Below, piece by piece: positions 2,951-36,766 of a stretch of DNA of 64,000 bases. The stretch lies in the sequence record OQ420740.1. One strand, 5' to 3'. How positions within the stretch are numbered: position 1 is the stretch's first letter; every line of letters starts with the position of its first letter. This DNA is from Escherichia phage B9-1. The position numbers were made by a program, and so were the translations under genes. A model generated the notes under the pieces. The model saw nothing but the letters and a program-made list of their open reading frames with translations, made no database searches and was not told where the DNA came from.

Positions 2951-3994
2951 ATGACTAAACCAGTTATCCCTCTTGATATTTGGGCCAATCAGGATGTTGT
3001 GCTTGAAAATACGGGAGAATTGAATAAGTCCCAACCAAAAAAAGAAGAGAGATTGAAAGGTTGGGATATGACACAAAGAGTGGCATGTGAAGTTGTTAAC
3101 TTTGAACTTCACATGCTTTCTGCGTGGTTAAAGCATTTAACAGAAGATGTTGTCCCAGGATGGGATAATAGATTCTTAAGGGTCACTAATAATCTGGCAG
3201 ACGTTCCAGACAAAGCTGCTGCACGTCAAGTTCTCAATGTATACTCGCCTGAAGAAATGGATGACCTTTATGTTGACAAGACTGGAGACACAATGATCCA
3301 GACTCAAACTTTAGGTCTTCAAAGAATTGAGTTTGCATCTGCGTCAACAGACAATGCGGCGATATACACCACCATAACTCCAGACAAGACGATGATGGAT
3401 TTCTGGATTATGGACAACATCGGTGGCGCTGACGGCACAGACCTTGATGATCCTTCTCACCAAATAGACGGTTTCCGTTGGAGATTTCAACCTTCTGGTG
3501 GGCAGCCTGTGTTTTCGGCTATGAAGCTCAATGCTATAACTGCCAACCGTGCAAGACTGGCTATCCAAGGAAATCTTGAATGCAATGATGCAAAAAGCTC
3601 CTCTGCAAATGCCAATGCGGTAACGATACCAAGAGCCACTGTTAATGGACAACAATCCTGCGGCAGCGCTCAAATAGGTGGAAGAGTAGATTGTAACGAT
3701 AAAACCGCCAGGGGTCAATATGCAACAGTTGGTGGGAGAAACGTGGTCCGCAGGGTAAATGGTAGTAGCGCAGATAGCAGTGGTAACCTTACTATCCCTA
3801 TGCCTAGTAGGGGTGTTGAAGATGTAAGGATAGCAAACCGTTTCAGAACCACCTACAGAGAATCAAGAGTATACCCTGGGCATGTAATGTGCTCCGGCAA
3901 TTACGCCTATAAACACCCGTATCAAGGTGACTATTGGACTGGTGCTATTCAAAAATTTGTAAACGGTCAATGGATCACGATATCTTATGCTTAA
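2951..3994 (+). CDS. tail fibre protein, paralog B
   Basis: 347 aa from ATG 2951 (SD GGAG 6 nt upstream; track ORF begins at GTG 2948); conserved N-terminus and C-terminus (QKFVNGQWITISYA) shared with 895..1935, divergent central region. Confidence 0.6.
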   Translation: MTKPVIPLDIWANQDVVLENTGELNKSQPKKEERLKGWDMTQRVACEVVNFELHMLSAWLKHLTEDVVPGWDNRFLRVTNNLADVPDKAAARQVLNVYSPEEMDDLYVDKTGDTMIQTQTLGLQRIEFASASTDNAAIYTTITPDKTMMDFWIMDNIGGADGTDLDDPSHQIDGFRWRFQPSGGQPVFSAMKLNAITANRARLAIQGNLECNDAKSSSANANAVTIPRATVNGQQSCGSAQIGGRVDCNDKTARGQYATVGGRNVVRRVNGSSADSSGNLTIPMPSRGVEDVRIANRFRTTYRESRVYPGHVMCSGNYAYKHPYQGDYWTGAIQKFVNGQWITISYA

Positions 3995-4003
3995 AGAGGG
4001 TAA

Positions 4004-4270
4004 ATGAAATTAACTCAGTTTTTATGGGGGTTGGTTGCGGCATCTGATGACCCTACGAAAGTGTCCCAATCTAAGCTATGGTCAAACATAGGCATGGCAG
4101 TGATGACTGGGGTGTTTATTCATATGGGGTACAATGATACGCTTCCTGAATGGTATGCGTGGATATACGCACCTTCGGTAGCTTGCCCCCAGCTTATTAG
4201 CAAATTCATCTCGCTCCGGTGGGGTTGCCAGCACCCTGACCACGTTAAAAACGAAGAGCAAAAAGCTTAA
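4004..4270 (+). CDS. hypothetical small protein
   Basis: 88 aa ORF with SD AGAGGG; hydrophobic central segment; function unknown. Confidence 0.45.
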   Translation: MKLTQFLWGLVAASDDPTKVSQSKLWSNIGMAVMTGVFIHMGYNDTLPEWYAWIYAPSVACPQLISKFISLRWGCQHPDHVKNEEQKA

Positions 4271-4279
4271 GGAGAAATC

Positions 4280-6025
4280 ATGGCGCAAGACATGACAAGC
4301 TTTGAGCAGGCGGTAGATCAAGTAATTGTTGATTCTGAACGTTTGCACTTGGTTGTCAACGGCAACGCTGTGGATGAAGTTGTCGTAGAGGATGGGACCA
4401 CTATCCCTACGGTACGAAAAGCCATGCTTGACAACCTTTATTTTAAAACGCCACCGATCCCTTGGGCGTATGGTGCATCCACAACAGTTTTTAACCAGTT
4501 GTATGAGTTTAAAGGGGATACAGGCACTCAGTGGTGGTACGCCCCCGCAGCATCAAAATCTAACCCGGTTAGGATGCCAGCAGATCCTTCACAATCTCCG
4601 AACTGGAGATTATACACCGATTCTGCAGTAATGGCAAAATACTACGCAAAACTTAACAGCCCAAGGTTCGAAGGTGACCCGAGAGTACCTACACCTCCGA
4701 TGGATGATAAGTCAGAGTCTATAGCAAACACAGAGTTTGTTGTTGACTATGTGGATAGCATATTTAAAGCCATGGAGGGGATGAAAGTTACTGTAGGATC
4801 TTTGGTGGTAAAAGGTCTTACAGAACTTGCCAACACCATAGTTGGGGGCACCCTTACCTTACACGGACCTGTTAATGGAGCAGATTCTACTGCACGCTTC
4901 AGGAACCTAATCCTTACGGCAAATACTTCTACACTAACTTTTGCGTGGAGCGATCCTAAGCATGCAGACTGGAGAAGCACAGAGCTGCAACCTCATGAAG
5001 TATCAACTCACAGAGTTATAGCTGACACTATAACTTCTGGGAAACCAGTGGCTAATAACAACGATGTGCATTTTGATGGTCTAGGTAATAACTTTTTTGA
5101 CTACGTGTACATTCGTGGTAATGCCATGAAGGCAGCCACCGAACCGACATTGCAGGTTGATGGGACCACTAGGGTTAAGAACCTTGAGGTGACAGGCACC
5201 GTTACAGGGATAACCTACTCTGTAGATGGCACCATGATCTACCCTAGCTATATTGAAAGCACGGGAGATGCACTGATCAATGGAGATTTAGAGGTTGGTG
5301 GATCTATAGTCATTCGTGGCACAGCATCTGTCCAGAACATATCTTTAAATACTCTGAGGGTGAATGAGCGTGCCACTTTTGAAGGAGAGGGGCTTACAGC
5401 CAACAAAGGTGTAATTACCGAGCTGACAACCACCACTCTAACTGCAACAACTGCAAACTCTGAAAACTGCAACGTTACCAGAAACTTGCAGGTAAATGGA
5501 GATGTTAGTTTAAACGCAGCAGGGACGGGCACTACCTACCTTCACAACCTTGAAATATCAGGTACAGTGACTGGGTGGCTGCCAGACTTCTCTAATGTCA
5601 ACTTTGTCTGTAATGGCATTAACTCCAGTGGCAAGATAACCACCTCTCAAGAAATTGAAGCTGGTAAAACTATTACTGCCCCTGCTTTCCATGCAGGGAA
5701 GGTGGAGTTTGACTTAGAGGAGGCTGACGCATCTAGTGGGACATGGACACCTAACGGGCAGGCCAATATGTATGTTGTCCACGCGAAAGGGGATTTTACA
5801 ATAGGGCAATGGCCTGGAACATCGGCTGAAGATAAACCTTACCCGTTCACTGCAATCATCTATGTCATTCAAGATGCTGTAGGCCACAACGTGACTTTAC
5901 ACGATAAATATGCCATACTGTCGGCTACTCCTGTTATTAACAACAAAGCCAACAGTGTCACCTTGCTACAATTGACATATTGTGGTGTTGGTGATATTGT
6001 GGATGTGGTTATTGCACAACGTTAA
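4280..6025 (+). CDS. tail fibre / tail spike-like protein (beta-repeat rich)
   Basis: 581 aa; strong SD AAGGAGA; Gly/Thr/Asn-rich repeated segments (TGTVTGITYS, EISGTVTGW) typical of fibre shafts; in the fibre gene cluster. Confidence 0.55.
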   Translation: MAQDMTSFEQAVDQVIVDSERLHLVVNGNAVDEVVVEDGTTIPTVRKAMLDNLYFKTPPIPWAYGASTTVFNQLYEFKGDTGTQWWYAPAASKSNPVRMPADPSQSPNWRLYTDSAVMAKYYAKLNSPRFEGDPRVPTPPMDDKSESIANTEFVVDYVDSIFKAMEGMKVTVGSLVVKGLTELANTIVGGTLTLHGPVNGADSTARFRNLILTANTSTLTFAWSDPKHADWRSTELQPHEVSTHRVIADTITSGKPVANNNDVHFDGLGNNFFDYVYIRGNAMKAATEPTLQVDGTTRVKNLEVTGTVTGITYSVDGTMIYPSYIESTGDALINGDLEVGGSIVIRGTASVQNISLNTLRVNERATFEGEGLTANKGVITELTTTTLTATTANSENCNVTRNLQVNGDVSLNAAGTGTTYLHNLEISGTVTGWLPDFSNVNFVCNGINSSGKITTSQEIEAGKTITAPAFHAGKVEFDLEEADASSGTWTPNGQANMYVVHAKGDFTIGQWPGTSAEDKPYPFTAIIYVIQDAVGHNVTLHDKYAILSATPVINNKANSVTLLQLTYCGVGDIVDVVIAQR

Positions 6026-6033
6026 TATATCTG

Positions 6034-6060
6034 ACCGCTCCTGACGGGGCGGTTTTCTTA
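6034..6060 (+). terminator. putative rho-independent terminator
   Basis: Hairpin ACCGC...GCGGT followed by TTTTCTTAT directly after the stop of 4280..6025. Confidence 0.5.
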
Positions 6061-6073
6061 TCTGGAGAACACA

Positions 6074-9000
6074 ATGCTTCCAATCCCTTTGCTAAAACTT
6101 GGTCGTCATTTCCTCGATAAGAGGGGTGGAGTTAAGGAACTTGCTGTTCTGTCATACCCAATAGACAACAGTGACGGTACAAGCACTACAGTAGCTTATG
6201 TAAATAGCTTAGCTATACTTTTTGACGACGGTCAGCTTAATATTACTGGCTATAACAAGTTCGGGGAGTGTCGCACTGGGGATCGTAACCCTATAAACTA
6301 CCCGAGCGAGACGGCCTGGAATGTCGATCATGTGTGGAGAGCAGACCGTGCGTTTGTGATCCGGACTTTTGATAACCAGTTTTTCTACATCGGCTGCACT
6401 GCAGGTCTTATCGGATCCACTGCGGCAGGTGGTAACGATGTTTGCGTAAACGAGTGGACACCTCTTCCGGAACAGATTGTTCAAGGATTGCACCTTGACA
6501 CCCACCCAGAGCGCCTTATCGAGGTAATGGGTGGTATTAACAACACTGTTTGGGTTATGGCAGAGGCTGAGGGTGACGGCATTTTACACCTGTACGGGTC
6601 TGGTAACAACACCTACGGATCTTTACATGTAGATAAGAACCAGCATGCAACTCCTGTAAAGATTGGTGAAACATCAGAAAATCCTGAAACAGGCCCTTGG
6701 AAAAACCCAAGTATCAACTGCGAGGTGCATGACAACTCTGTTATTTTCGGTGGTCCTAGAGGTTTCTGGATTGCTGGGTACGACTTTCTGAGAAACAATA
6801 GTAGAAACACTCTCGTTTGGCCTCCTGCTCAGATTACCCGTGACGATTTGAGAGGAATTCCTGCAGATGAGGAGTGGAAAGGGTTCATGTGCGGTCCGAA
6901 TGGGGCAGTGGTTGCAACACAAAGAATGCACAGACCTGATGACCAACAACTTGTTAACGTATTTTATGGTCAAAACGTTTGGGGAGATGATACCTGGCGT
7001 GCTTTGAATATAACCTACACCCATGAGGTGATAATGGCTCGTGGGTACGGCACAAGTGGCATTTTCTTCAACAATGGTACTAAGCAGTATCGTGGCTTCT
7101 CTCGAAACCTGTGCAACGATATTGGCGCACAATCTGCAAACAATAATCCCCGTGCCGATTTTGTTCATTACCAGGCCCTTGCTACGGCCAAATATGTTGA
7201 GCAACGTTTGCCAGTTAGCTGGACAGAGAGTGTTTATTTCCAAGGCATCCATAGAGAAGGTTTTTTAGGGACCTTTACTGTTGTTAATGGTAAACTTTGG
7301 TGGTCAGGTATCCCAAGGGGAAGTTTTGCAGGCTCTAATAACCTGTTTGGCGGTAGACTTAATAGTCAAGGGTTCACAGAGGTTCCTGAGAATTGGTATA
7401 AAAATGTCCCAGTAGATAGTTGGGGTGTTGATGATATTTTTGACGTTAACGGTGTTAGCAGCGTTAGCAATATTTACATTGGTGACACGGTCAAGATGAA
7501 ATTGAAGCCTCAGCCAGAGGGGGCTACGTTCATTATTGACAAGATTGAGCTGGTAAATGCTGCGGGTACGGTTGTTACAGATGCAAATTACCAATTCTCC
7601 ACCAACTGGAACCACGGCGGGGCCAACGAAGTTGTTGTTACTCAGTATAACAGGAATGTTAACAGACGTGGCCTGTACTCTGTAAAAATAACCTATCATG
7701 ACAAGCATGGCACAGGAAGAACTCACACGACAAGGACTTTGAACTGGAACACCATAGTTCCTGCGTATCCTTCTGACGGTAAGTGGCATACCGTTGGTAG
7801 AAACAAGCAGTTCCATGTTAACGATACTGTATACTTCGGGCTGAATGGGACTCAGCCTGCGGTAGAAGGAGATACATCGTATATGGTCCGACTCCACAGA
7901 ATGGATGCTGGATCAGTCACCTATGATGTTACCCAAGAGATTTATGATCAGAGACGAAATACCTACAACAACTTAGTGCAGACACAGGCCGTATGGGAGT
8001 TCAACCCTAACGGCAGAGGCGGTAAAATGTTGCAGGTTAACGAGCAAAACGGAACGTCGTTGACTGTCCACGAACACCCAGACCCTTGGCCTGATCCTGG
8101 AAAACCTCACCCAGGTGCTCGTACACTGAAAATTGTCAGCCATGATGCAGGATATTTCGGAATACGCTGGGAAGCCACAGTAAGATATGCAGACGGGACA
8201 ACAAACAACATAGGGATTACACTTGGAGGCACCAGTGAAGATAGCTCTCTGAAAATTGCCTACACCCCTAGGGGCATCTCTATTGATAATATGGATGTTG
8301 TTCGCAATGGTTACGGCGATGTGAATGTCAAAGTTACTCTTGGCGAACATCTTGGTGGGGAAAGGATCATCATGTATGCCTTTGATCATGACCCGCGAAC
8401 CAATGGAACTTATGCAAATCAGGCATGGAGTTACCTGATAAATGCACCTGAGCCGAATACTAAAGAGTTCTACTACGGTATGAAGCGAGATGTATGCAAG
8501 AAAACAGGAACACATGACTGGATTGCTATCTGCGTTAAAGATGAGCGCACAGCTTGGGATGAGCCTGTTAATAGATGGTTCATAGGTATTCCTACCAGAA
8601 GCGATAAGTATATCGCAGAATACATTGTGTGCATGGGCGGTACCAACCTAAATATGTGTTGGAACGAAGATGCAAACAAATACTCTGATTATGACTATAT
8701 GAGAGATTACTCTTGTAATCAGTGGTTTAACCAATCAACAGGGTATCCTCCACGACAGGCGAGAGTAAACCCTGCAATCTTTACAGATACGCAGGTTTTC
8801 TTGACAAAACAGGCCAACGAGGTTCAGACCTTCAAGAACAAATACGACCCTAACAAGTGGTTTTATAACTGTTATGGCGCATTTTTCTGGGGTCCTGGCG
8901 AACTGCCTAATGGAGGATCTTGCTTCGAGGCTGCAACTTACGCCAGTGACAGGTTCATGGGGCAGGTTAAGAAGTACAAGATAATCCCAGGGCCTGAAAC

Positions 9001-11710
9001 TTTAGGCAACGCTGTTGACCCATATATCATCATGACAGCACTAAGATCGAACATGGACGGAACATCCATATCTATGCAAGTTCCAGTAACAAACGGGTAC
9101 AAACGTGTTGTGATGATCATTAAGTGCGACTTAATAGGTAAGCAAGTTCTTGCAGAAAACGGAACCTCAACACATCTATTCGAGACTGCTCTGCATTATC
9201 AGTTTGCTGATTCACCTTTTGCAGGGGATAAGAGAATATCTGATACAGACAACACTCGATGCAAGAAATTTATGCTTGGTGGTGGATGGTGGTGGTATGA
9301 ATTTGATTTAACAGACAAATTCACTGACACGTCTAAAGTGGTGACAGGGCTTCGTCTAGATCTTGGCGAAAACATGCACAAAAGTGTTTGTGATGGCACC
9401 TACGGTGACCCAACAATCTACTTAAAGTATGTCTCTTTTGAGCATCCGGAAGATGTTGTTTACGGTCCAAAACTGAGATTGTTTGGCAGTTGGATTGCAA
9501 AAGACAGGGTAGGCATGGGTAAAAAGGTAAGAGGGTTCTTGGTTGATGCAGGAACAGAAGACATGCTGGTTAATGCAGTGTGGCCTGAATTACCTGGGAC
9601 TCAGTGGGATAACTCAGCCAAGTCCATAAACTGGTTCAACATTCACAGAGCTATGTGGACAACTAACTGCTACCTGTGGAAAGAGTTGAATGACGGCGCT
9701 TTCGGGTTTACAGGTGGCAGAAGAATGGCAATCATTTGCTGGACAACGCTGCAAAGATGTTATGACCATGACTACGAGATTGGGGGTAGGGCATGGAAAA
9801 ATATTAGGGATAGAATCATAACTAACTTCGCAGACCCTAATGGTGGTGGAGCGTATGGCTTCGACTGCAGCAGGCTCATCCATTTGAACGGGTCCTCTGC
9901 ATATAAGAAAGAGGGTTACTCTGGATCTATGATTGAGTGGGGCCTGGTGAAAGATGCTCGCGTATTGATGGGTCAACAACTTGCTGCTGCAATAGGACCT
10001 AACGCAGTGCAGTCTGTTAAACCAGCGTGGTTCGATATCCCAATATGGTCATCTGGAACACCAGGAACTGCGGCAATCAACCCTACCACTGGGGATCTGG
10101 AAATCTCTTGGGAGGACTTGAAGCAGGTTGGTGGCTGGGATAAGACAGGCTACCAGGTACAATGGTGGAGATCTGACGGATCGTTAGCGGCTGATGAGTT
10201 TGTTAAGGACAATTTCTACACTATGTCCTCTGCAAAAGCACAGCAATTGTTTGGTCAGGCAACTCCGTCAACGATCACCATGTCCATGTGCTGTAAAGAC
10301 AACAGGACTGGAGCCCTGGGACCAAGGGTTGCTAAAGTTTTCTCAGGTATTAAATGGAATCTCCCTGTTCAAAGTGTTTCATGGAAGCAAATAGGTGATA
10401 ACAAGCTGCTGGTTACTCCTGCCTGTCAGTTCAACGCAACTCTTAACGTTGATCCTGCTGTTGCGGCAAACTCAGCTAAAGCTTCTGACTTCTCTGTGTC
10501 TAACACTGCTATGGCAGATGTGAGGAAGATTGATACACTGAATGCCAGAATTACCTGTAAAAACACTTATGGCACATTCCAGATCATCAACAACTTCACA
10601 GATGCTGATTCTAAGGTAGTGAGGACAGCAAGCCAGACTATGCAGTTGGGAACTCTGGCATACTCTGCCTTGATCACTGAACAATCTCCTACCCTTCAGG
10701 GTGGGGGTGTTGGTAAGTTGATCACAACACCTGTGTGGAAGCCAAATGAGTGGGTTGTGTTTGATTTGACTGTAGACTTCTCCAGTGACAATAACTGGAC
10801 ATGGGTAAGGAATTGCTTGTCACAGTTGATGGGTGGTCCAAGCTCTGTTAGTGATAGCCACGACTCTACTGACCCGAGCGTGTTCCAGGTGGGTAAAACT
10901 CACCCAGAAACTGGGGCACAGTTGCCTGACAGGAAGTATGCTTTGGTTTGCATCTCTTACGGAAAAGCAGATGTCACCTTCTCAGGGACGCACACTTATA
11001 ACGGAACTTACAACTTCTCAAGGAAGTATAGTCTCAAGGCTGGTAACATTATAGATGAAGTTGGTGCGTTGTATAACCCAGGTAACGGCATAGGGATTGT
11101 GGGTGGTAAACTGCAGATGCAGGAACCTTCTATTACCCCTTCCAATGTGTCTGGGATTAGAAAGACTTGGGAAAGCAGTAATACCAACATTGCAACAGTG
11201 GATGCTACCACAGGGCTGGTAACATTTAAAGCCCCTGGTAATGTCACTATAAAGTTTGTAGTTACTGATGATGCAGGGCGCAAAACGTCTTCAACATCTT
11301 TTACTGTCAAACAGATGACACCACAGTGGAGAATGTGGATAGGTACAGCAACAAACGGGGCATACCCTAATCCGGCAGGTACTTCTGGTATGAAGACTTT
11401 CTCTACAAGCAAACCGATGGAGTACGGCAGCGGTCCTAAGGTAGGGCAGATGGTGTACTTTGGTGCGTATATTCCTGAAATTATAGGGCTTCCGAGAAGT
11501 CAGCTTCAGTTGCTGTTTGGGGCTGGTGTTGACGATCTTGCCACTTTCGGGTATAGCGACAACATCGAGGCTGCAAGGAGTTCAGGATGGGTAGGGTTCA
11601 GAATGGAGTCTGGAAAGGAAGGCAGGATTCTAGGGACAGCCTCTATAGGTGTTATGTTCCCTGGTGACCAGCAGTATCGTCTGGAAGCCTACGCGACTTT
11701 CTCTCTTTAA
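6074..11710 (+). CDS. large virion-associated protein with C-terminal bacterial Ig-like (Big_2) domain
   Basis: 1878-aa uninterrupted ORF; segment SNTNIATVDATTGLVTFKAPGNVTIKFVVTDDAGRKTSSTSFTV fits the Big_2 fold signature; all antisense ORFs inside are short. Confidence 0.6.
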   Translation: MLPIPLLKLGRHFLDKRGGVKELAVLSYPIDNSDGTSTTVAYVNSLAILFDDGQLNITGYNKFGECRTGDRNPINYPSETAWNVDHVWRADRAFVIRTFDNQFFYIGCTAGLIGSTAAGGNDVCVNEWTPLPEQIVQGLHLDTHPERLIEVMGGINNTVWVMAEAEGDGILHLYGSGNNTYGSLHVDKNQHATPVKIGETSENPETGPWKNPSINCEVHDNSVIFGGPRGFWIAGYDFLRNNSRNTLVWPPAQITRDDLRGIPADEEWKGFMCGPNGAVVATQRMHRPDDQQLVNVFYGQNVWGDDTWRALNITYTHEVIMARGYGTSGIFFNNGTKQYRGFSRNLCNDIGAQSANNNPRADFVHYQALATAKYVEQRLPVSWTESVYFQGIHREGFLGTFTVVNGKLWWSGIPRGSFAGSNNLFGGRLNSQGFTEVPENWYKNVPVDSWGVDDIFDVNGVSSVSNIYIGDTVKMKLKPQPEGATFIIDKIELVNAAGTVVTDANYQFSTNWNHGGANEVVVTQYNRNVNRRGLYSVKITYHDKHGTGRTHTTRTLNWNTIVPAYPSDGKWHTVGRNKQFHVNDTVYFGLNGTQPAVEGDTSYMVRLHRMDAGSVTYDVTQEIYDQRRNTYNNLVQTQAVWEFNPNGRGGKMLQVNEQNGTSLTVHEHPDPWPDPGKPHPGARTLKIVSHDAGYFGIRWEATVRYADGTTNNIGITLGGTSEDSSLKIAYTPRGISIDNMDVVRNGYGDVNVKVTLGEHLGGERIIMYAFDHDPRTNGTYANQAWSYLINAPEPNTKEFYYGMKRDVCKKTGTHDWIAICVKDERTAWDEPVNRWFIGIPTRSDKYIAEYIVCMGGTNLNMCWNEDANKYSDYDYMRDYSCNQWFNQSTGYPPRQARVNPAIFTDTQVFLTKQANEVQTFKNKYDPNKWFYNCYGAFFWGPGELPNGGSCFEAATYASDRFMGQVKKYKIIPGPETLGNAVDPYIIMTALRSNMDGTSISMQVPVTNGYKRVVMIIKCDLIGKQVLAENGTSTHLFETALHYQFADSPFAGDKRISDTDNTRCKKFMLGGGWWWYEFDLTDKFTDTSKVVTGLRLDLGENMHKSVCDGTYGDPTIYLKYVSFEHPEDVVYGPKLRLFGSWIAKDRVGMGKKVRGFLVDAGTEDMLVNAVWPELPGTQWDNSAKSINWFNIHRAMWTTNCYLWKELNDGAFGFTGGRRMAIICWTTLQRCYDHDYEIGGRAWKNIRDRIITNFADPNGGGAYGFDCSRLIHLNGSSAYKKEGYSGSMIEWGLVKDARVLMGQQLAAAIGPNAVQSVKPAWFDIPIWSSGTPGTAAINPTTGDLEISWEDLKQVGGWDKTGYQVQWWRSDGSLAADEFVKDNFYTMSSAKAQQLFGQATPSTITMSMCCKDNRTGALGPRVAKVFSGIKWNLPVQSVSWKQIGDNKLLVTPACQFNATLNVDPAVAANSAKASDFSVSNTAMADVRKIDTLNARITCKNTYGTFQIINNFTDADSKVVRTASQTMQLGTLAYSALITEQSPTLQGGGVGKLITTPVWKPNEWVVFDLTVDFSSDNNWTWVRNCLSQLMGGPSSVSDSHDSTDPSVFQVGKTHPETGAQLPDRKYALVCISYGKADVTFSGTHTYNGTYNFSRKYSLKAGNIIDEVGALYNPGNGIGIVGGKLQMQEPSITPSNVSGIRKTWESSNTNIATVDATTGLVTFKAPGNVTIKFVVTDDAGRKTSSTSFTVKQMTPQWRMWIGTATNGAYPNPAGTSGMKTFSTSKPMEYGSGPKVGQMVYFGAYIPEIIGLPRSQLQLLFGAGVDDLATFGYSDNIEAARSSGWVGFRMESGKEGRILGTASIGVMFPGDQQYRLEAYATFSL

Positions 11711-11720
11711 CAAGTAGTAG

Positions 11721-11755
11721 ATAAAAAAGGGGCCAAATGGCCCCTTTCTTTTTAT
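11721..11755. terminator. bidirectional rho-independent terminator
   Basis: AAAAAAGGGGCCAAATGGCCCCTTTCTTTTT: perfect GGGGCC/GGCCCC stem flanked by an A-run and a T-run, between convergent genes 6074..11710 (+) and 11758..11958 (-). Confidence 0.7.
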
Positions 11756-15198: not shown

Positions 15199-15432
15199 TT
15201 AATCTTCGTAAATAATGATTTCTGCTTTAGGTTTTCGTGCTTTCAGGTCCAGCTCTATCCAGTGCACCATCGCTGTTTCAAGAAAAACAGCCTGGATGCA
15301 TCCGTCTTCAGCGTGCCCTACCAGCATAACAAGATCTTCACATTCATCATCTGCATCACGGACATACAAGATCTCTCCAGATTCAAAGTCTTTCACAACC
15401 TGATTGCTGGATAATTTACGAATTTTTGCCAT
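15199..15432 (-). CDS. hypothetical small protein (distant member of the tandem 87-aa family?)
   Basis: 77 aa ORF adjacent to three tandem paralogs, similar size and charge pattern. Confidence 0.5.
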   Translation of the reverse strand: MAKIRKLSSNQVVKDFESGEILYVRDADDECEDLVMLVGHAEDGCIQAVFLETAMVHWIELDLKARKPKAEIIIYED

Positions 15433-15433
15433 A

Positions 15434-15697
15434 TCAGAAACCCTCTAAAAAGCTCTTGTAGAAAATAATCTCAGTATCCACACCAGTCACGATCTTGTCG
15501 TTCCTGATTTCATCTGTAAGATAGGTGTCAAAACGCAGCACCTGTGTGGTATTGTCACACATCCACTCGGCTGTTACCATGGCAAAAATCTTAGCATCTT
15601 CATTATCTGGTGTAAATGTCACCACCTCACCGCATTTAAACTTTTCGATAGGTTGCGTGTTAGCTTTTGGTTCTGCAATGGTGATTTTCGTGGTCAT
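15434..15697 (-). CDS. small protein, tandem paralog 1 of 3
   Basis: 87 aa; shares the G.VV...D...... V(M/A)(I/L)V motif and length with 15697..15960 and 15960..16223. Confidence 0.55.
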   Translation of the reverse strand: MTTKITIAEPKANTQPIEKFKCGEVVTFTPDNEDAKIFAMVTAEWMCDNTTQVLRFDTYLTDEIRNDKIVTGVDTEIIFYKSFLEGF

Positions 15698-15960
15698 TAT
15701 TCTCCTCCTTCTTTTGAATAGCTTGTCTCTCCAAGGATGGTAATTTTGGTGTCAAGCTCTGTAACTTTCATGTTTGGTGGCAGATCGTACAACTCATTAT
15801 TTTCTAAATCGAACCCCCATACACAATGTTCCCCTGTTTTGACAATCATAACTATGTTTTGAATGCCGTCTCCGTCACAACTTACCACGGTCCCACATGG
15901 AAAACTGTCTGCACGCTTTTTGTTCTTCACTTTAGAATTGAATACAATGCTAGTAGCCAT
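15697..15960 (-). CDS. small protein, tandem paralog 2 of 3
   Basis: 87 aa; start overlaps the stop of the upstream gene; paralogous to neighbours. Confidence 0.55.
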   Translation of the reverse strand: MATSIVFNSKVKNKKRADSFPCGTVVSCDGDGIQNIVMIVKTGEHCVWGFDLENNELYDLPPNMKVTELDTKITILGETSYSKEGGE

Positions 15961-16223
15961 TATTGTTCCTCCACCATAACTTCGCCAAGAATTTCTATGC
16001 AGGCATCCATTTCTGTAACAACCAAGGTGTGAGGTAGTTCTGCAAACACCTTTCTGAACAGGTCAAATACCCCAACATATATGTTTGCAGGATGTGATCT
16101 CACAACAAGTGCTGTATTCACATCTCCAAGTTCATCAACAAACATCACCACAGTACCTGGAGCTACTGAAGACAGATACTTCTTAGTTTTACGGTTGGAT
16201 GCAAATTTTAACTCTGTTGCCAT
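15960..16223 (-). CDS. small protein, tandem paralog 3 of 3
   Basis: 87 aa; MATELKFASNRKTKK... resembles MATSIVFNSKVKNKK... of paralog 2. Confidence 0.55.
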   Translation of the reverse strand: MATELKFASNRKTKKYLSSVAPGTVVMFVDELGDVNTALVVRSHPANIYVGVFDLFRKVFAELPHTLVVTEMDACIEILGEVMVEEQ

Positions 16224-16238
16224 AAATAATCTCCTCCT

Positions 16239-17699
16239 TTATTTAACGTACTCGATTAATTCCACAGTTCTCCCAAAGCTAGGGATATAATTTTTATTAT
16301 ACCCTTCGGTGAGAACCCATAAAGTATCGTACTTTTTCCACTTGTTGTCAACAGCCTTTTGTTCAAAGTTATGCTCAAAGTATAGGTCGGTAAGGACGAT
16401 GACATCTTTTGCATTTGGTATGTTAGCATCCAGATACTCGAACACGCAGGCGGCTGTTGTGCCCCATGTTGAGTGGACCTCATAGTTGATCATCTCATCG
16501 ATGTTACCGCGAGTGTATACTTTAACCTCTCCAACCTCGGTTGACCAACAGAACATCGTAACCTTAAACTCTTTATACAAATTGCACAACCCGGTGATCT
16601 CATTGAACATTTTCTTTAAAGTTCTTTGTGAGATCGATCCAGAAACGTCTAAAGCCACCACAATATCTATAGTGTTTTCCGGATTACGACCAGGAACAAT
16701 AACGTGCTGATTCTTGTTTATAGCTCCAACTTTTCGCATTGTGGTGGTCAAAGACCCAGATCGGCGACCCGGTTTTCTGTAGGTTAACTCAGCCTTCCTT
16801 TTAGATAACATACGTTGCTTAATAATATCTATATAATTGATTACAGGCTTGCCTCTGTTTTTGACAAACTCGCGCACCGCCTCGGGGCAACGACCTCCTG
16901 AAGCTTGCATTGCTGCTTCCAACATGTCACCAGAGTCCTGCATGGCCTGATCTTTATCCGATTGACTGATTACTGGTTGCGGCTGATCATACCCCATAGC
17001 CTTTCCAAGATCATCACTAGTGCCACCGTTCCCGCTCATGTGATCATCGGTTTGTCGTTTATCTCCTTGGGAGTTCTCTCCTTTACCGTTCTTACTTTTA
17101 CCGCTATTCTGATCTCTTTGTTTATCAAGAACTGCATAGACGTTCTCAGCAATCCATCCATGAAACTTCATGTCGCAGTAGCAACTAGCTAAGAAGCCAA
17201 AAGGCTTACCTTTTACGAACTCAGTGCTTTTCCCCTTCGGGAAGAAAACACAAGGAGGCTTGCTAAAGTCAACCACAAGACCTGTGTTGATAACGTGATC
17301 ACAAGCAATATTGAACAGTTCCGGCTCAAAGCTTTTACCACGGACCAGATGATCACAGATAATATGCCCCACCTCATGTGACAGAAGAAAGGCCACCTCT
17401 TTCACAGATTTTGGGGAATAGAAAACCTCAGCCATCTCAAACTGCTTGTCAGTCAGAGATGCTTTAAGAATGGTTTTACGCTCATCTGCCAACCCCATAA
17501 TGAACTCAGGGCTGTAGTAGATGCGTTTATGGTCTGTTGCCATAGTGGAGCACCATGTGTGGTTTTCTACGAACTGCAACCCTGACAACAGTGTGCCATA
17601 AAACGGCAGCTTTTCAAGAAGGTACATGCGAGCGGCCTGCAGCATTCGCAAGGCATCATCTTTTTGTGCGGTAATGATTTCTGAACTTCTGCTATCCAT
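16239..17699 (-). CDS. metallopeptidase-like (HExxH) + von Willebrand factor A (vWA) domain protein
   Basis: N-terminal HEVGHIICDH (HExxH) and C-terminal VALDVSGSIS (MIDAS DxSxS) match the DUF2201_N putative metallopeptidase + VWA-like architecture that partners with MoxR ATPases; start taken at ATG 17699 (SD GGAG), the track start 17720 lies inside an intergenic hairpin. Confidence 0.65.
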   Translation of the reverse strand: MDSRSSEIITAQKDDALRMLQAARMYLLEKLPFYGTLLSGLQFVENHTWCSTMATDHKRIYYSPEFIMGLADERKTILKASLTDKQFEMAEVFYSPKSVKEVAFLLSHEVGHIICDHLVRGKSFEPELFNIACDHVINTGLVVDFSKPPCVFFPKGKSTEFVKGKPFGFLASCYCDMKFHGWIAENVYAVLDKQRDQNSGKSKNGKGENSQGDKRQTDDHMSGNGGTSDDLGKAMGYDQPQPVISQSDKDQAMQDSGDMLEAAMQASGGRCPEAVREFVKNRGKPVINYIDIIKQRMLSKRKAELTYRKPGRRSGSLTTTMRKVGAINKNQHVIVPGRNPENTIDIVVALDVSGSISQRTLKKMFNEITGLCNLYKEFKVTMFCWSTEVGEVKVYTRGNIDEMINYEVHSTWGTTAACVFEYLDANIPNAKDVIVLTDLYFEHNFEQKAVDNKWKKYDTLWVLTEGYNKNYIPSFGRTVELIEYVK

Positions 17700-17711
17700 T
17701 AAAACTCCAGA

Positions 17712-17728
17712 AGGGGCCATTGGCCCCT
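17712..17728 (-). other. intergenic GC hairpin (terminator/attenuator-like)
   Basis: AGGGGCCATTGGCCCCT, same type as the 11721 terminator, between 17733..18722 and 16239..17699; only a short T-run follows on the minus strand. Confidence 0.4.
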
Positions 17729-17732
17729 GTCA

Positions 17733-18722
17733 TTATTTAACGTGCTTGAAAATACCAGCCAACTCGGTCATTGTCATGCGAGTGGTCTTCATAAGGTCTG
17801 TCATAGCCTTCTCCATGATTGGAGATACTACCATGAAGTTACCTTTGGTGAAACCTTTGTTCCAGTCGGTAACTAATAGGGGTTTAAGTCCGGCACCGAG
17901 ACGTTCACCAGTTAAAGCACAACATTTTCGAATGTATGTGCTCTTAAACTGGCTGAATGACAGATCAACTTTCATACCTGCATCGTAGAACGTCTGGCAA
18001 TAGAAAGTGTAAGCTTTGGCAATCTCAACATCGTCAGGCAGTGCAGGAACCTCTTCTGTAAGCTCTTCTTCGACCCCTTGAGGCTCTTTTTCCTCTTCGT
18101 AAGCCTGTTGCGTCATCTCTTCAATCTCCTCTACTACAGGCTCGTTTACAATGTCAGAAATGTGCTTGTTGGCTCCACGATTAGCCATGAAGTTTTTAAA
18201 ATCCTGCATTGGTGACATATCTTCCTCCCATTCTTCGTCAAAGAGTGCTAGTTTATCCTCTTCCGTTCCATATTGCAAGATGAAATCTTCAAAAGTGTAA
18301 TCACCTTTCAATTTCTCCATACGCTCTTCGCTCAGGTGGAGCATCATCTGCTGGACAATTTTTCGATCAGTTTTGTCTTTAATCAAGACTGCGGTCTTTT
18401 TATCTACCAGGCAGTCCTTTAGGGAGTTGCATCTCAATCCCACCACACAACAATTATCAACCGCATAAGGACCTTCATCATCTATCCGCTCCAGAGATGG
18501 GTAGAAAGGATTTCCCAGTCCGTTTTCATCTGTGTGCATGTCGAAAGGTATAAGGGTATAGTCGCATACTCCCTCTCCTAAAAGTTTTTTACCAAATAGG
18601 AGATATTCTTCCCATGACAGGTTGAACTCTATATCCCGTTTCCGTGCGTTATTCTGTTTGCGTCTGTATTTTTTGAGCAAGCGCTCTAACTCTTCTGGTG
18701 TATAATATTTTTCAAGATTCAT
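17733..18722 (-). CDS. hypothetical acidic protein
   Basis: ATG at 18722 with SD AAGAGA; the track start 18782 is a TTG lying inside the divergent promoter region; Glu-rich central region. Confidence 0.55.
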   Translation of the reverse strand: MNLEKYYTPEELERLLKKYRRKQNNARKRDIEFNLSWEEYLLFGKKLLGEGVCDYTLIPFDMHTDENGLGNPFYPSLERIDDEGPYAVDNCCVVGLRCNSLKDCLVDKKTAVLIKDKTDRKIVQQMMLHLSEERMEKLKGDYTFEDFILQYGTEEDKLALFDEEWEEDMSPMQDFKNFMANRGANKHISDIVNEPVVEEIEEMTQQAYEEEKEPQGVEEELTEEVPALPDDVEIAKAYTFYCQTFYDAGMKVDLSFSQFKSTYIRKCCALTGERLGAGLKPLLVTDWNKGFTKGNFMVVSPIMEKAMTDLMKTTRMTMTELAGIFKHVK

Positions 18723-33988: not shown

Positions 33989-36766
33989 ATGAGCATGTGG
34001 TCGTTCGATTTTGAGGCCTCTGGCCTGCTGGAAGACCCAGATCTTTATTATCACTGCGGTTTGTTTAAAGAGCTGAATAAGAACCGTTTTATGCTGTTCC
34101 TTCCTCTAAATGACCGCACACACTACTCTGAAGAGGATGTGGAGAAAGCTAAGAACTTCATTCTGGCAAAGAAGACCCTTTATACAGATTTTGATGTTCG
34201 CATAGCAGATTTTTCAGAGTTGGAGGGTTGGCTTACAGGTAACTCAGACTGGTCACCTACAGCTTTGAACTGTCATAACTGCTACAGCTACGACTTTATG
34301 CTAATGGAGAGATTATCCGGTATTCATTTTGATATGTTCCGTGATCCTAAATGCATGGGGACTATCAACGACCACCAGGTTAATCTGTTCGATACGTTAG
34401 CAATGAGTCGAATCTTGTGGCCTGACCGCCCTTTGCCAAAAGGTTGTCCGGACGCAGTATTTAATCCAGTTACCAAGAAAATGCAGCCTGTTGGGCCTCA
34501 TGGCCTTATGGCATGGGGCTATGCCCTTGGTAACCAGAAAGTTCAAATCGATGACTGGCGTGAGCTTCCGCTGTGGAAGTATGTGGATCGTGTGTTCGAG
34601 GACGTTATCATTCAGGAGTTGCTCTGGAAGGAGTTGGTAGCTGAATCAAAAGGTGTATTCTACGGCAAATCTGACATGCAGAACTTTATGTACGATCCTG
34701 CCAAAGAGAAGCCGAAAGGCTTCAAGAAGATCACCTGGAAGAACGCATTACGCCGAGGCATGTTACAGCACTTCCTGATGGAGCTGCAGGCTCGACAGGG
34801 GGTGTATTTCGACATAGATGGGGCTATTGCTCTACGTGACCGTTGCGATGCGTGGATGAAAGAGATCGCTGATCGTGTTGAACCACAACTCCCTTTAAAA
34901 GAGCTATCAATGTCTCAACGGCCTAAGTTTCCTGAAAAGCCGTTTAACCAGGATGGGACAATCTCCAATAATGGTTGGAAATGGTTAAAAGACAAGCTTG
35001 GCTACCCTGTGGACATGAGTGCTTTAGAGTTCAAAGCTCCTCCTAAGCGAGCATTTACCTCCACAGGGGATGTAAGTAAGATGGGGATAAAATGGTGTGA
35101 AGAGATGGGCTGTAAAGACCCCGATAAGATGGCTGATTTCTTGAGGGGGTATATCAAAGGAACTTCTACACCACACCCTTTACCTAAAGAGCTGATGGAT
35201 CAGGCGATAAGTGACCTACAGCAGAAGCGAATGCCTGACTGCAAGATACCTATGAAAATCAGCAATCAGGACGACATCAAGCGATACCTGATCAGTGCTG
35301 GTTGGCTCCCAACAATGTGGAGAACTAAGGATGTAACTAAGGACAGCAAGAAGAAAGCTTTACCTGATGCAGATGTTGATGCACGAGTATATGCATATAT
35401 GGACGAGCTTTTGGAGTCAGAGTATTGTGACCTAATTATCAACTTCTGGAACAAAACTGATGCTAAGTTCCAGACAACTGTACATAAGTTCAGAAGCTTC
35501 CCTAACTCTGAAAGAATTAAAAAGGAAGTGTTCGGGAAAATACGTAGAAAAGCCAGAGCGCTTATTACTTCTCCGCAACTGAAAGATACGTTTGGACACC
35601 TATGTCCGAATCTTGAAAAATTGAACGGAGAGATGGCTAAAGATATCGTTTTGTGGTTATCATTGCGAAACCGCAGATCGGTCCTTGATCCAATCAAGGA
35701 AGATAAGGTCGATACTGGTCTTCTTAATCATCCACGTTTGAAGATTGACCACAAGCTTCCTGCTAAAAGTTCTGGATTAACAAACACTTCCAGACAGAAA
35801 CATAGTATTTGTGCAAACATGCCTAAACCATCTCCTAAAGTGGTTATGGGTAAAGAGATGCGTAGTCTGTGGGGTGTTCCTCCGGGATACTTTGAGATCG
35901 GTATTGACGGGTCCAACTTAGAGCAGCTCATCGGGGCCTGGGGTGCCTTTGAGTTTGACAACGGTCTGTATTATGATGTTGTAAGTAACGGGGACGCGCA
36001 CCAAAACAATGCTGAGGCATATACAAAAGTAGCAGGTAGAGAGGTGTCTCGTAACGATGGTAAACCTATCACGTATGGGGTTATGTATGGGGCACAAAAA
36101 GATAAAGTTGCAGATATGCTGGATATCTCTCCAGAACTGGGGCAGAGAGTAATTGATGCTCTCTGGGATGCCAACCCAGGTCTTAAGGGGCGCAAAGAGG
36201 ATCTGGAGAAATTCTGGGAAGCAACAGGTAAGAAATTTATCTACTCTTTTGACGGGCATGCCATTTGGACCCGCTCTAAACACTCTTTGCTTAATGCATA
36301 TCAGCAAAATGGCGGTGCATCGTTGTGCGACTTGGTCGGAATCCTCATGCACCACCAAATGGTGAAGCGTGGATGGTATGATGAAGGTGTTCGTCGTATT
36401 ATTTATTACCATGACGAATATCAGCTTCAAGTGCCTGACACCCCTAAGTATAAAACTGTATACACCTTCGACACAATTGAAGAGCTGGAAACATTTAAAG
36501 CCCAACAAGAGGCTAAACTTCATGTGTTCGACGGTCATAAGTACAAAAAGGCACGCAAAGATGAGGACGGAAACGAAGTGGTTGACAAGGACGGAAATAC
36601 GGTATACGATCCTATCTTGAACGATGACGGAAAGCTTGAACTTATCTGGAGCCCTGTGGGCGAAATGGTGGTGCATTGCTTCTGGCAGGCTTCTAAAATG
36701 ATGGGCGTTCCGTTCCAGATCACAGGTGAATACTTGTGCGGTCGTAACTGGGGCGATTGTCACTAA
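33989..36766 (+). CDS. DNA polymerase, family A (Pol I-like)
   Basis: 925 aa; exonuclease-like FDFEASGL near the N-terminus; motif A GIDGSNLEQL, motif B KPITYGVMYG, motif C YHDE. Confidence 0.75.
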   Translation: MSMWSFDFEASGLLEDPDLYYHCGLFKELNKNRFMLFLPLNDRTHYSEEDVEKAKNFILAKKTLYTDFDVRIADFSELEGWLTGNSDWSPTALNCHNCYSYDFMLMERLSGIHFDMFRDPKCMGTINDHQVNLFDTLAMSRILWPDRPLPKGCPDAVFNPVTKKMQPVGPHGLMAWGYALGNQKVQIDDWRELPLWKYVDRVFEDVIIQELLWKELVAESKGVFYGKSDMQNFMYDPAKEKPKGFKKITWKNALRRGMLQHFLMELQARQGVYFDIDGAIALRDRCDAWMKEIADRVEPQLPLKELSMSQRPKFPEKPFNQDGTISNNGWKWLKDKLGYPVDMSALEFKAPPKRAFTSTGDVSKMGIKWCEEMGCKDPDKMADFLRGYIKGTSTPHPLPKELMDQAISDLQQKRMPDCKIPMKISNQDDIKRYLISAGWLPTMWRTKDVTKDSKKKALPDADVDARVYAYMDELLESEYCDLIINFWNKTDAKFQTTVHKFRSFPNSERIKKEVFGKIRRKARALITSPQLKDTFGHLCPNLEKLNGEMAKDIVLWLSLRNRRSVLDPIKEDKVDTGLLNHPRLKIDHKLPAKSSGLTNTSRQKHSICANMPKPSPKVVMGKEMRSLWGVPPGYFEIGIDGSNLEQLIGAWGAFEFDNGLYYDVVSNGDAHQNNAEAYTKVAGREVSRNDGKPITYGVMYGAQKDKVADMLDISPELGQRVIDALWDANPGLKGRKEDLEKFWEATGKKFIYSFDGHAIWTRSKHSLLNAYQQNGGASLCDLVGILMHHQMVKRGWYDEGVRRIIYYHDEYQLQVPDTPKYKTVYTFDTIEELETFKAQQEAKLHVFDGHKYKKARKDEDGNEVVDKDGNTVYDPILNDDGKLELIWSPVGEMVVHCFWQASKMMGVPFQITGEYLCGRNWGDCH

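Follow-up and report, generated by a model that had tools for sequence, protein, structure and literature searches.

In the 64,000-nucleotide (nt) stretch of Escherichia phage B9-1 analyzed here (sequence record OQ420740.1, referred to below as the window), the largest gene encodes a protein of 1878 amino acids (aa). The phage is rV5-like (genus Vequintavirus), and in rV5 itself the orthologous gene encodes gp27, a name used here for the window protein as well. The gene is under strong purifying selection and yet is dispensable for propagating isolates. Its product consists, in order, of an M-x-P-I-P peptide, a probable RCC1-like beta-propeller, immunoglobulin (Ig)-like spacers, an insert of ~570 aa, an FN3-like domain, tandem Ig domains that include a Big_2 domain, and an allelic tip. 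We read it as a non-essential accessory fiber or adhesin, carried at low copy on the virion, anchored by its N-terminus and extended as a flexible multi-domain chain, and not as a depolymerase; in our judgment this reading is about evenly poised between right and wrong.

The gene itself is already known: it was deposited with rV5 (GenBank DQ832317), appears in the 2013 rV5 paper and is annotated in more than 100 genomes. Table S3 of the rV5 paper lists gp27 (1878 aa, 208,334 Da) as a 'conserved hypothetical protein' that contains a Big_2 domain, and the window protein has a predicted mass of 208.5 kDa and an isoelectric point of 6.35. Other names in use are 'lateral tail fiber protein with intimin domain' in the BASEL annotation (e.g. 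Bas49_0041) and 'Ig-like domain-containing protein' in GenBank. New here are the link across genera through the RCC1-like region and the M-x-P-I-P peptide, the orphan status of aa 761–1440, the two alleles of the tip, and a catalogue of natural knock-outs that includes a recurrent amber mutation.

Conservation and natural disruption of gp27

The window protein matches phrog_15684 from end to end (aa 1–1877 to positions 1–1877 of the 1878 in the profile, 4463.7 bits). A nucleotide search returned 107 Vequintavirus records that cover the gene at 80–99% identity, the nearest being Escherichia phage ECP26 (97.7% over the gene), and a protein search returned 109 phage records with 90–99% aa identity and a coverage of 80% or more. 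Intact orthologs are equal in length to the window protein or within 5 aa of it, and their position and orientation relative to the fiber genes are unchanged. For eight intact Vequintavirus orthologs, the ratio of nonsynonymous to synonymous substitution rates (dN/dS) was 0.075, with a dS of 0.53, which indicates purifying selection over the whole length. The sole hot spot was found at aa 1741–1794 (0.46), in the tip domain, with aa 1–1740 at 0.02–0.12. Moderate allelic variation of gp27 was reported independently in the BASEL paper.

Even so, alleles with nonsense, frameshift or deletion lesions are present in at least seven deposited and viable isolates. The most extensively altered is APCEc02, in which a frameshift near aa 112 is combined with a ~2.9-kb deletion of aa 440–1416 and the remnant consists of three open reading frames (ORFs; locus extract 3001–5673). 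The ends of this deletion coincide with predicted domain boundaries, namely the end of the propeller and the end of the FN3-like domain. What is lost is just what the Vequintavirus protein has beyond gp40 of phage PVP-SE1, and what is left is roughly a short, gp40-like layout. Smaller lesions are an 11-nt deletion at aa ~45 in JES2013, a 2-nt deletion at aa ~1055 in ime, an amber codon at W82 (TGG to TAG) in nomine and a frameshift near aa 788 in naswa. The remaining two isolates, ECP26 from Korea and magaca from Denmark, share an amber codon at Y617 caused by the identical T-to-G change at nt 1851. The change is private to each phage and is flanked by distinct haplotypes, and the nearest intact relatives of both carry Tyr617, indicating that it arose twice. 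Its recurrence may reflect a mutational hot spot, selection or a systematic artifact. All three nonsense alleles seen in the gene are TAG. Among IMG/VR and metagenome contigs, the amber was found in none and the wild-type codon in five, numbers that are too small to interpret.

Predicted domains and the orphan central region

Each half of the protein was modeled as a monomer with AlphaFold, from an alignment of 16 sequences; the mean predicted local distance difference test (pLDDT) score was 47.9 for aa 1–780 and 52.6 for aa 761–1878. The models are mostly beta-strand, with beta-sandwich or Ig-like domains of moderate confidence at aa 449–565, 950–1125, 1331–1425 (FN3-like), 1560–1656, 1673–1756 (Big_2) and 1782–1876. 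Their helix-rich stretches at aa ~870–930 and 1130–1320 are unreliable.

At the very start of the protein, M-x-P-I-P is invariant in every homolog encoded at the same genomic position (called the slot below), including phi92 gp152, in which MYPIPLF leads straight into two Big_2 domains with no propeller between them. Because the motif is kept even where the propeller is missing, the extreme N-terminus is a putative attachment element. The adjoining aa ~20–440 probably form an RCC1-like beta-propeller. Pfam matches of the window N-terminus stay below their cutoffs (WD40_RLD with 22.6 bits against 150, E = 7.5e-5; RCC1_2 with 13.3 bits against 22). The RCC1 repeat cutoff of 21.7 bits is passed by PVP-SE1 gp40 (36.1 bits), GAP31_232 (32.7 bits) and an 891-aa Phapecoctavirus 'tail protein' (24.3 bits), and a Foldseek search of the PDB with the low-confidence N-terminal model returned the RCC1-like domains of HERC1/HERC2 along with UVR8, RCC2 and WBSCR16 at E values of 1e-3 to 9e-3. 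It is the homologs above the cutoff together with these model matches that lead us to the propeller assignment. GxNxxGxLG-like motifs can be seen by eye in the window N-terminus; blade-to-blade searches with hidden Markov models for internal repeats in this part were not significant, and pLDDT is below 50 over most of aa 1–440. The three proteins above the cutoff are also the only relatives found beyond Vequintavirus, and they align with aa 1–197 only (40% identity for the Phapecoctavirus protein, ~30% for PVP-SE1 gp40 and GAP31_232).

For the spacer that follows the propeller, Foldseek matches of the N-terminal half in the PDB were Ig/V-set domains and pilins. At the other end of the protein, Big_2 (PF02368) is the sole Pfam domain above its gathering score (35 bits against 22.8, E = 1.4e-8; 37.8 bits in a scan of the C-terminal piece by itself). 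When Pfam was searched at E = 10 with five pieces of the window protein and with six family members, the only other matches were sub-threshold RCC1-like and fn3 models. NCBIfam and PDB sequence and profile searches likewise matched the Big_2 region only, as an Ig module of the intimin/Sap type, with an E value of 0.0025 for the intimin D domain in the PDB. In Foldseek searches, the C-terminal half resembled generic tandem-Ig arrays of the PDB (NUP210, the Sap and SbsB S-layer proteins, cadherins) and Ig-decorated phage proteins of BFVD (Hoc-like capsid proteins, major tail proteins and tail fibers) besides its own family. A search with the C-terminal 289 aa found family fragments only. The tip beyond the Ig array exists in two alleles among Vequintavirus isolates, which differ chiefly in two loop regions; the window has an intact gene with the 'A' type tip, as do rV5/typing phage 5, FV3 and EmilHeitz. 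The tip is the putative ligand-binding end of the protein.

Between these two parts lies a region with hardly any relatives. A full HMMER search of 1.84e9 representative proteins with a profile of aa 761–1440 recovered only the protein's own family, as did a word-index search of 5.8e9 proteins with the central-region profile. The same profile found nothing in the PDB, and Pfam at E = 10 with six family members gave nothing for the central region except a stray fn3. The sole outside similarity of aa 761–1440 is to phi92 gp153, with a pairwise BLASTP E value of 2e-7 over aa 1219–1419; hhalign aligned gp153 with the window protein at E = 3.4e-4 and a probability of just 38%.

This central region is rich in invariant residues, with dense runs of invariant aromatic and acidic positions, as might be expected if gp27 were an enzyme-bearing lateral tail fiber in which aa 761–1330 form a new glycan-degrading or glycan-modifying domain (a depolymerase or an esterase) for crossing capsule, O-antigen or enterobacterial common antigen (ECA), with the Ig domains as its stalk. 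The BASEL authors do annotate a lateral tail fiber, and the genus is known for fibers with glycan-active domains. The helix-rich flanks around a beta-sandwich, as seen in the low-confidence model, would also be compatible with some carbohydrate-active folds. We nonetheless think it rather unlikely that gp27 is such an enzyme. Searches of Pfam, NCBIfam and the PDB with six family members found no enzyme family, not even at E = 10, and the 1.84e9 proteins searched held no homolog beyond the family itself. Although phi92 gp153 has a sub-threshold match to the SASA acetylesterases with a QGEND motif, the window protein has GTEDM at the aligned position, and inspection by eye showed no candidate block with Ser or His; with the low hhalign probability, an esterase origin is kept only as a lead. 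No depolymerase-type fold, trimerization module or chaperone domain (Peptidase_S74) was detected anywhere in the protein, and neither model contains a long beta-helix, the models being of low confidence. Phages isolated from hosts that include O157, O121, O177 and K-12 have the protein at 90–99% identity; such conservation is atypical of depolymerases, in which the catalytic or receptor-binding part varies with the glycan type of the host. Finally, APCEc02 is viable with the entire region deleted.

A preliminary description of this gene, made from the sequence alone, was right about its size (1878 aa against 925 aa for the next largest product), its placement after fiber genes (phrog_4465 short fibers, a Caudo_TAP chaperone and a phrog_4549 fiber lie upstream) and a single recognizable Big_2 domain near the C-terminus. 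Its suggestion that the N-terminal 1500 aa might carry a depolymerase or receptor-binding activity found no support. No beta-helix, lyase, sialidase, lipase or esterase match was found in Pfam, NCBIfam or the PDB; the N-terminus reads as a probable RCC1-like propeller and the variable, allelic end is the C-terminal tip; and conservation across many host serotypes is unlike that of depolymerases specific for a capsule or O-antigen. Of the pectate-lyase beta-helix, sialidase and lipase folds for which it proposed structure prediction and fold search, none was found with the low-confidence models of the two halves, and these searches gave no information on aa 761–1330. This segment may still hold an activity that has escaped recognition.

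Possible virion association and genomic slot

In the multidimensional protein identification technology (MudPIT) table for rV5, locus 27 reaches 3.1% coverage, from nine spectra of three peptides. All three, which are semi-tryptic or non-tryptic and have XCorr values of 2.65–3.2, fall inside aa ~346–725. The rV5 authors did not flag gp27 as confirmed by mass spectrometry, and a later paper counts only six rV5 proteins confirmed in this way. The preliminary description called the product a virion protein; its presence in the MudPIT list agrees with this, whereas the three low-scoring peptides, in the same tier as the non-structural rIIA, leave it short of confirmation. Weakly evidenced as it is, virion association is plausible from context and architecture.

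The gene is the final plus-strand gene of a tail-fiber block, past a 581-aa fiber and an 88-aa membrane protein, and in relatives the slot likewise lies past a gp29-like membrane protein and a gp28-like fiber and before a convergent terminator. Homologs occupy the equivalent slot in Phapecoctavirus, Seunavirus and phi92, and gene order is unchanged around a 45%-identical metagenomic relative. Altogether 15 homologs were recovered at 45–97% identity; in BLASTP, those at 59% or less align with the window protein over just its first 76%, and their C-termini are different. Identity to the 45–59%-identical relatives is 65–85% over most of aa 1–450, with two lower blocks (58% and 41%), 30–70% at aa 450–1440 and 16–45% past aa 1440. 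A conserved N-terminus combined with a variable C-terminus favors the accessory adhesin, and the Big_2 domain, the tandem Ig arrays and the BFVD matches to Ig-bearing virion proteins are a domain content typical of virion surface decoration.

Such a content also raises the possibility of a head or neck decoration of the T4 Hoc type, with the N-terminus on the capsid or collar and the Ig domains holding the phage in mucus ('bacteriophage adherence to mucus') without direct host recognition. Here, phrog_215, which matches aa 1593–1877, has the category 'head and packaging: structural protein with Ig domain'; a Hoc-like outer capsid protein and a major head protein with Ig domains are among the BFVD matches; a GenBank note on phi92 gp151 names its N-terminal domain a 'potential capsid binding domain'; and, like Hoc, gp27 is dispensable in the laboratory and yet under purifying selection. 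Homologs that share its N-terminus are, however, annotated as tail proteins (phrog_11922), and the genomic position argues for the tail as well. Discrete tip alleles would also fit contact with a host surface better than generic contact with mucin, and we regard attachment to the head or neck as unlikely.

The thin mass spectrometry record, with gp27 in the rIIA tier and not listed as confirmed by the rV5 authors, could alternatively mean that gp27 is a late factor outside the virion, intracellular or at the cell surface, for example a scaffold for assembly of the fiber network or a protein acting on the envelope of the infected cell. The terminator-like hairpins on either side of the gene would suit this, since they could make it a separately regulated unit. 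On the other hand, Big_2, FN3 and Ig arrays are typical of extracellular and virion-surface proteins, annotated tail proteins have the same slot and N-terminus, the N-terminus (judged by eye only) is unlike a signal peptide, and 208 kDa is costly for a non-structural accessory role. We therefore consider a non-virion factor very improbable.

The roles of both hairpins remain putative, because in a promoter and terminator scan of the region the sites, terminator-like ones included, were no more numerous than in shuffled sequence. At the place that matches the downstream hairpin, the annotation of PVP-SE1 has bidirectional rho-independent terminators. The upstream hairpin could attenuate read-through from the fiber genes, which would fit a low abundance of gp27.

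A tape-measure protein was considered and rejected. The gene sits past the fiber genes, and the reading is excluded by models that are mostly beta-strand and by the separate gp49 of rV5, a 778-aa 'minor tail protein' in Table S3 of the rV5 paper that the legend to BASEL S5C calls the tape measure.

Proposed role of gp27

In the reading that we favor, gp27 would be carried at low copy, in keeping with the three peptides and 3.1% coverage in rV5 virions, most likely at the baseplate or the periphery of the tail fibers, and would be held there by its conserved N-terminus, with the remainder projecting as a flexible, monomer-style chain of beta domains. Through its Ig-like domains, beta-sandwiches and variable tip, it would bind weakly and additively to glycans on the surface of natural hosts or to glycan-rich surroundings, and this would make encounter and adsorption more frequent in the wild. 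Other fibers would carry out the infection itself, and on rough laboratory strains gp27 would bring no benefit and be readily lost. For these other fibers, the literature proposes that the rV5 gp34 homolog acts on the NGR/ECA glycan and that the lipopolysaccharide (LPS) outer core is the terminal receptor, for which the conserved short tail fibers are candidate binders. The literature leaves unresolved which gene builds which rV5-like fiber.

Several points weigh against the accessory adhesin. Models of both halves are poor, so that a monomeric chain of domains, like the propeller and any fold of aa 761–1330, can be put forward only as a prediction. Presence on the virion is not firm, given the company of rIIA in the MudPIT data. 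Some of the disruptions could be sequencing or assembly errors, although four of the disruptions are clean substitutions or multi-nt deletions outside homopolymers, and a gene-disruption control with the 925-aa DNA polymerase was not clean because that gene is often split by homing endonucleases. Lastly, the strongly conserved and invariant-rich center suggests a specific activity beyond that of a passive spacer. This last point can be taken further: the ~570–680-aa center may have a new fold and a specific action on glycans that counts only on natural hosts, be they smooth, encapsulated or embedded in mucus, and that burdens the phage on rough laboratory strains. The repeated knock-outs, among them the identical Tyr617 amber that arose independently in ECP26 and magaca, would then be a product of selection while the phages were propagated in the laboratory and not of neutral decay. 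We hold this to be unlikely.

A gene that fills 4% of the genome and varies so little among wild phages must bring a benefit under some conditions. The rV5-like phages are among the commonest E. coli phage isolates and, through their broad host range, are candidates for therapy and food safety. If gp27 serves as an accessory adhesin on natural hosts or in gut mucus, stocks propagated on rough strains may differ functionally from wild phage; if its center is glycan-active, therapy stocks grown on K-12-type hosts could silently lose an organelle of host interaction. Natural near-isogenic pairs of intact and disrupted alleles are available in ECP26/ECP32 and magaca/ime-like phages.

Features of the locus and neighboring genes

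Coordinates of the gene, its predicted domains and its flanking signals are collected in the table.

Table. Features of the gp27 locus in the window (positions numbered from the first nt of the 64,000-nt stretch).
Feature	Position	Strand	Basis
Terminator-like hairpin and T-run, between the upstream fiber gene (stop at 6025) and the 1878-aa gene	6033..6054	+	9-bp stem, 6 GC pairs
Shine-Dalgarno sequence GGAG, 6 nt 5' of ATG	6064..6067	+	Read from sequence
Coding sequence, 1878 aa, ATG start, rV5 gp27 ortholog (phrog_15684)	6074..11710	+	Full-length phrog_15684 match; 97.7% nt identity to ECP26
N-terminal peptide MLPIPLL	6074..6094	+	M1, P3, I4 and P5 invariant in alignment of slot homologs
Probable RCC1-like beta-propeller, aa ~20–440, best-conserved part of the protein	6131..7393	+	Sub-cutoff Pfam; homologs above cutoff; Foldseek of low-confidence model
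Beta-sandwich/Ig-like spacer, aa 449–760	7418..8353	+	Only aa 449–565 modeled moderately (pLDDT 60–82 at aa 440–560)
Codon 617, TAT (Tyr) in the window, TAG in ECP26 and magaca	7922..7924	+	Sequence comparison
Lineage-specific central region, aa 761–1330, helix-rich flanks (pLDDT 21–33) around a beta-sandwich	8354..10063	+	Profile searches; model
Predicted beta-sandwich domain inside central region, aa ~950–1125	8921..9448	+	Model pLDDT 62–84
Segment with weak similarity to phi92 gp153 (a stand-alone 'tail protein'), aa 1148–1422	9515..10339	+	BLASTP; hhalign
FN3-like beta domain, aa ~1331–1425	10064..10348	+	pLDDT 57–77; Pfam fn3 E 0.05, below cutoff
Tandem Ig-like domains, aa ~1440–1680	10391..11113	+	aa 1560–1656 confident, N-terminal part poorly modeled
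Big_2 bacterial Ig-like domain, aa 1682–1733	11117..11272	+	Pfam above cutoff; intimin D-domain match; pLDDT 80–93
C-terminal tip domain, aa 1752–1878, two discrete alleles	11327..11707	+	dN/dS; allele alignment; phrog_215 match at aa 1593–1877
Terminator-like hairpin, between the 1878-aa gene and convergent minus-strand genes	11726..11747	+	Promoter/terminator scan

Upstream of the gene lie the C-terminal part of an NCTSP TIM-barrel fiber, two phrog_4465 short tail fibers, a Caudo_TAP chaperone and the 581-aa phrog_4549 fiber. The first of these is ORF 88–882, the C-terminal part of an NCTSP TIM-barrel/deacetylase fiber (the homolog of rV5 gp34 and phi92 gp142), inside whose gene the window begins; recent work has assigned this fiber as the binder of the NGR/ECA glycan. 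A 584-aa counterpart of the 581-aa neighbor (4280–6025), encoded on the metagenomic contig that carries P0015, has the Pfam domains Phage_phiTE_241_N and Phage_phiTE_241_C. In the phiTE structure obtained with cryo-electron microscopy (cryo-EM), the long tail fiber docks on wedge protein 2A and the sheath initiator. If that long fiber is the namesake of Phage_phiTE_241, the 581-aa neighbor would by analogy be a candidate docking partner of the giant protein.

Elsewhere in the window, three abutting 87-aa ORFs on the minus strand (15434–15697, 15697–15960 and 15960–16223) are divergent paralogs, neighbors being 29–36% identical; a fourth ORF of 77 aa adjoins them within 15199–16223, and all four are hypothetical in relatives. 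The family A DNA polymerase gene (33989–36766) is unbroken in the window and is split by HNH homing-endonuclease insertions in several close relatives, FFH2, I29 and 241Ecol014PP among them. About 15 unannotated GenBank records (MG0656xx), named 'Campylobacter phage' with Campylobacter jejuni as host, have 93% DNA identity and 97% protein identity to the Vequintavirus gp27 gene. They match the window DNA polymerase too, and their host attribution looks doubtful.

Comparison with known systems

The closest counterparts of the window protein outside its genus are PVP-SE1 gp40 (604 aa), GAP31_232 (567 aa) and the Phapecoctavirus protein (phrog_11922), which resemble it in genomic slot, in the M-x-P-I-P peptide, in the probable RCC1-like propeller and in the Big_2 domains that come after it. 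They lack the ~1,000 aa that the Vequintavirus protein has between the propeller and the Ig C-terminus, and they end in other C-termini. In phi92, the equivalent slot after gp151 holds gp152, which consists of MYPIP and two Big_2 domains, and gp153, which aligns weakly with aa 1148–1422. This arrangement differs from that of the window in having no propeller, in being split into two small genes and in the GTG start of gp153, which has no ribosome-binding site. The gp153 gene begins after a 166-nt gap behind gp152 (phi92 locus extract 16321–17983). Together, gp152 and gp153 resemble a remnant of the slot gene or the slot gene in split form. In the 2026 cryo-EM paper on phi92, the two proteins are absent from the main text and fiber II is still unassigned.

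The likeness to intimin and invasin comes down to one Big_2 domain that resembles the intimin D domains. An intimin was rejected as a candidate: the NCBIfam model intimin_all scored 21.7 bits against a cutoff of 1400, over aa 1696–1734 only, and ~40 residues match the model or PDB chains. The intimin family model spans a membrane-anchoring N-terminus, a Big_2 stalk and a C-terminal binding domain. The 'intimin domain' of the annotation is the Big_2 domain and nothing more.

Lambda Stf, which is frameshifted in lambda PaPa, and the L-shaped fiber pb1 of T5 are accessory adsorption organelles that can be lost without loss of plaques on rough K-12. Like them, gp27 is conserved in the wild and yet inactivated in isolates. 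Both are, however, trimeric fibers with chaperones or assembly partners, whereas no trimerization or chaperone module is detectable in the window protein. Ig-decorated virion proteins such as T4 Hoc are non-essential in the laboratory and are presumed to adhere weakly to glycans. The window protein shares with this group its Big_2, FN3 and Ig-like modules, and combines Ig arrays with disrupted alleles; it differs in being ~10 times larger and in its probable RCC1-like propeller, orphan 570-aa region, place in a tail-fiber block and allelic tip. T4 Hoc and the C-terminus of lambda gpV are among the examples of Ig-like decoration of phage structural proteins (Fraser et al. 2006). By analogy, then, the behavior of gp27 most resembles that of Ig-decorated accessory virion proteins and of the dispensable accessory fibers that laboratory stocks tend to lose.

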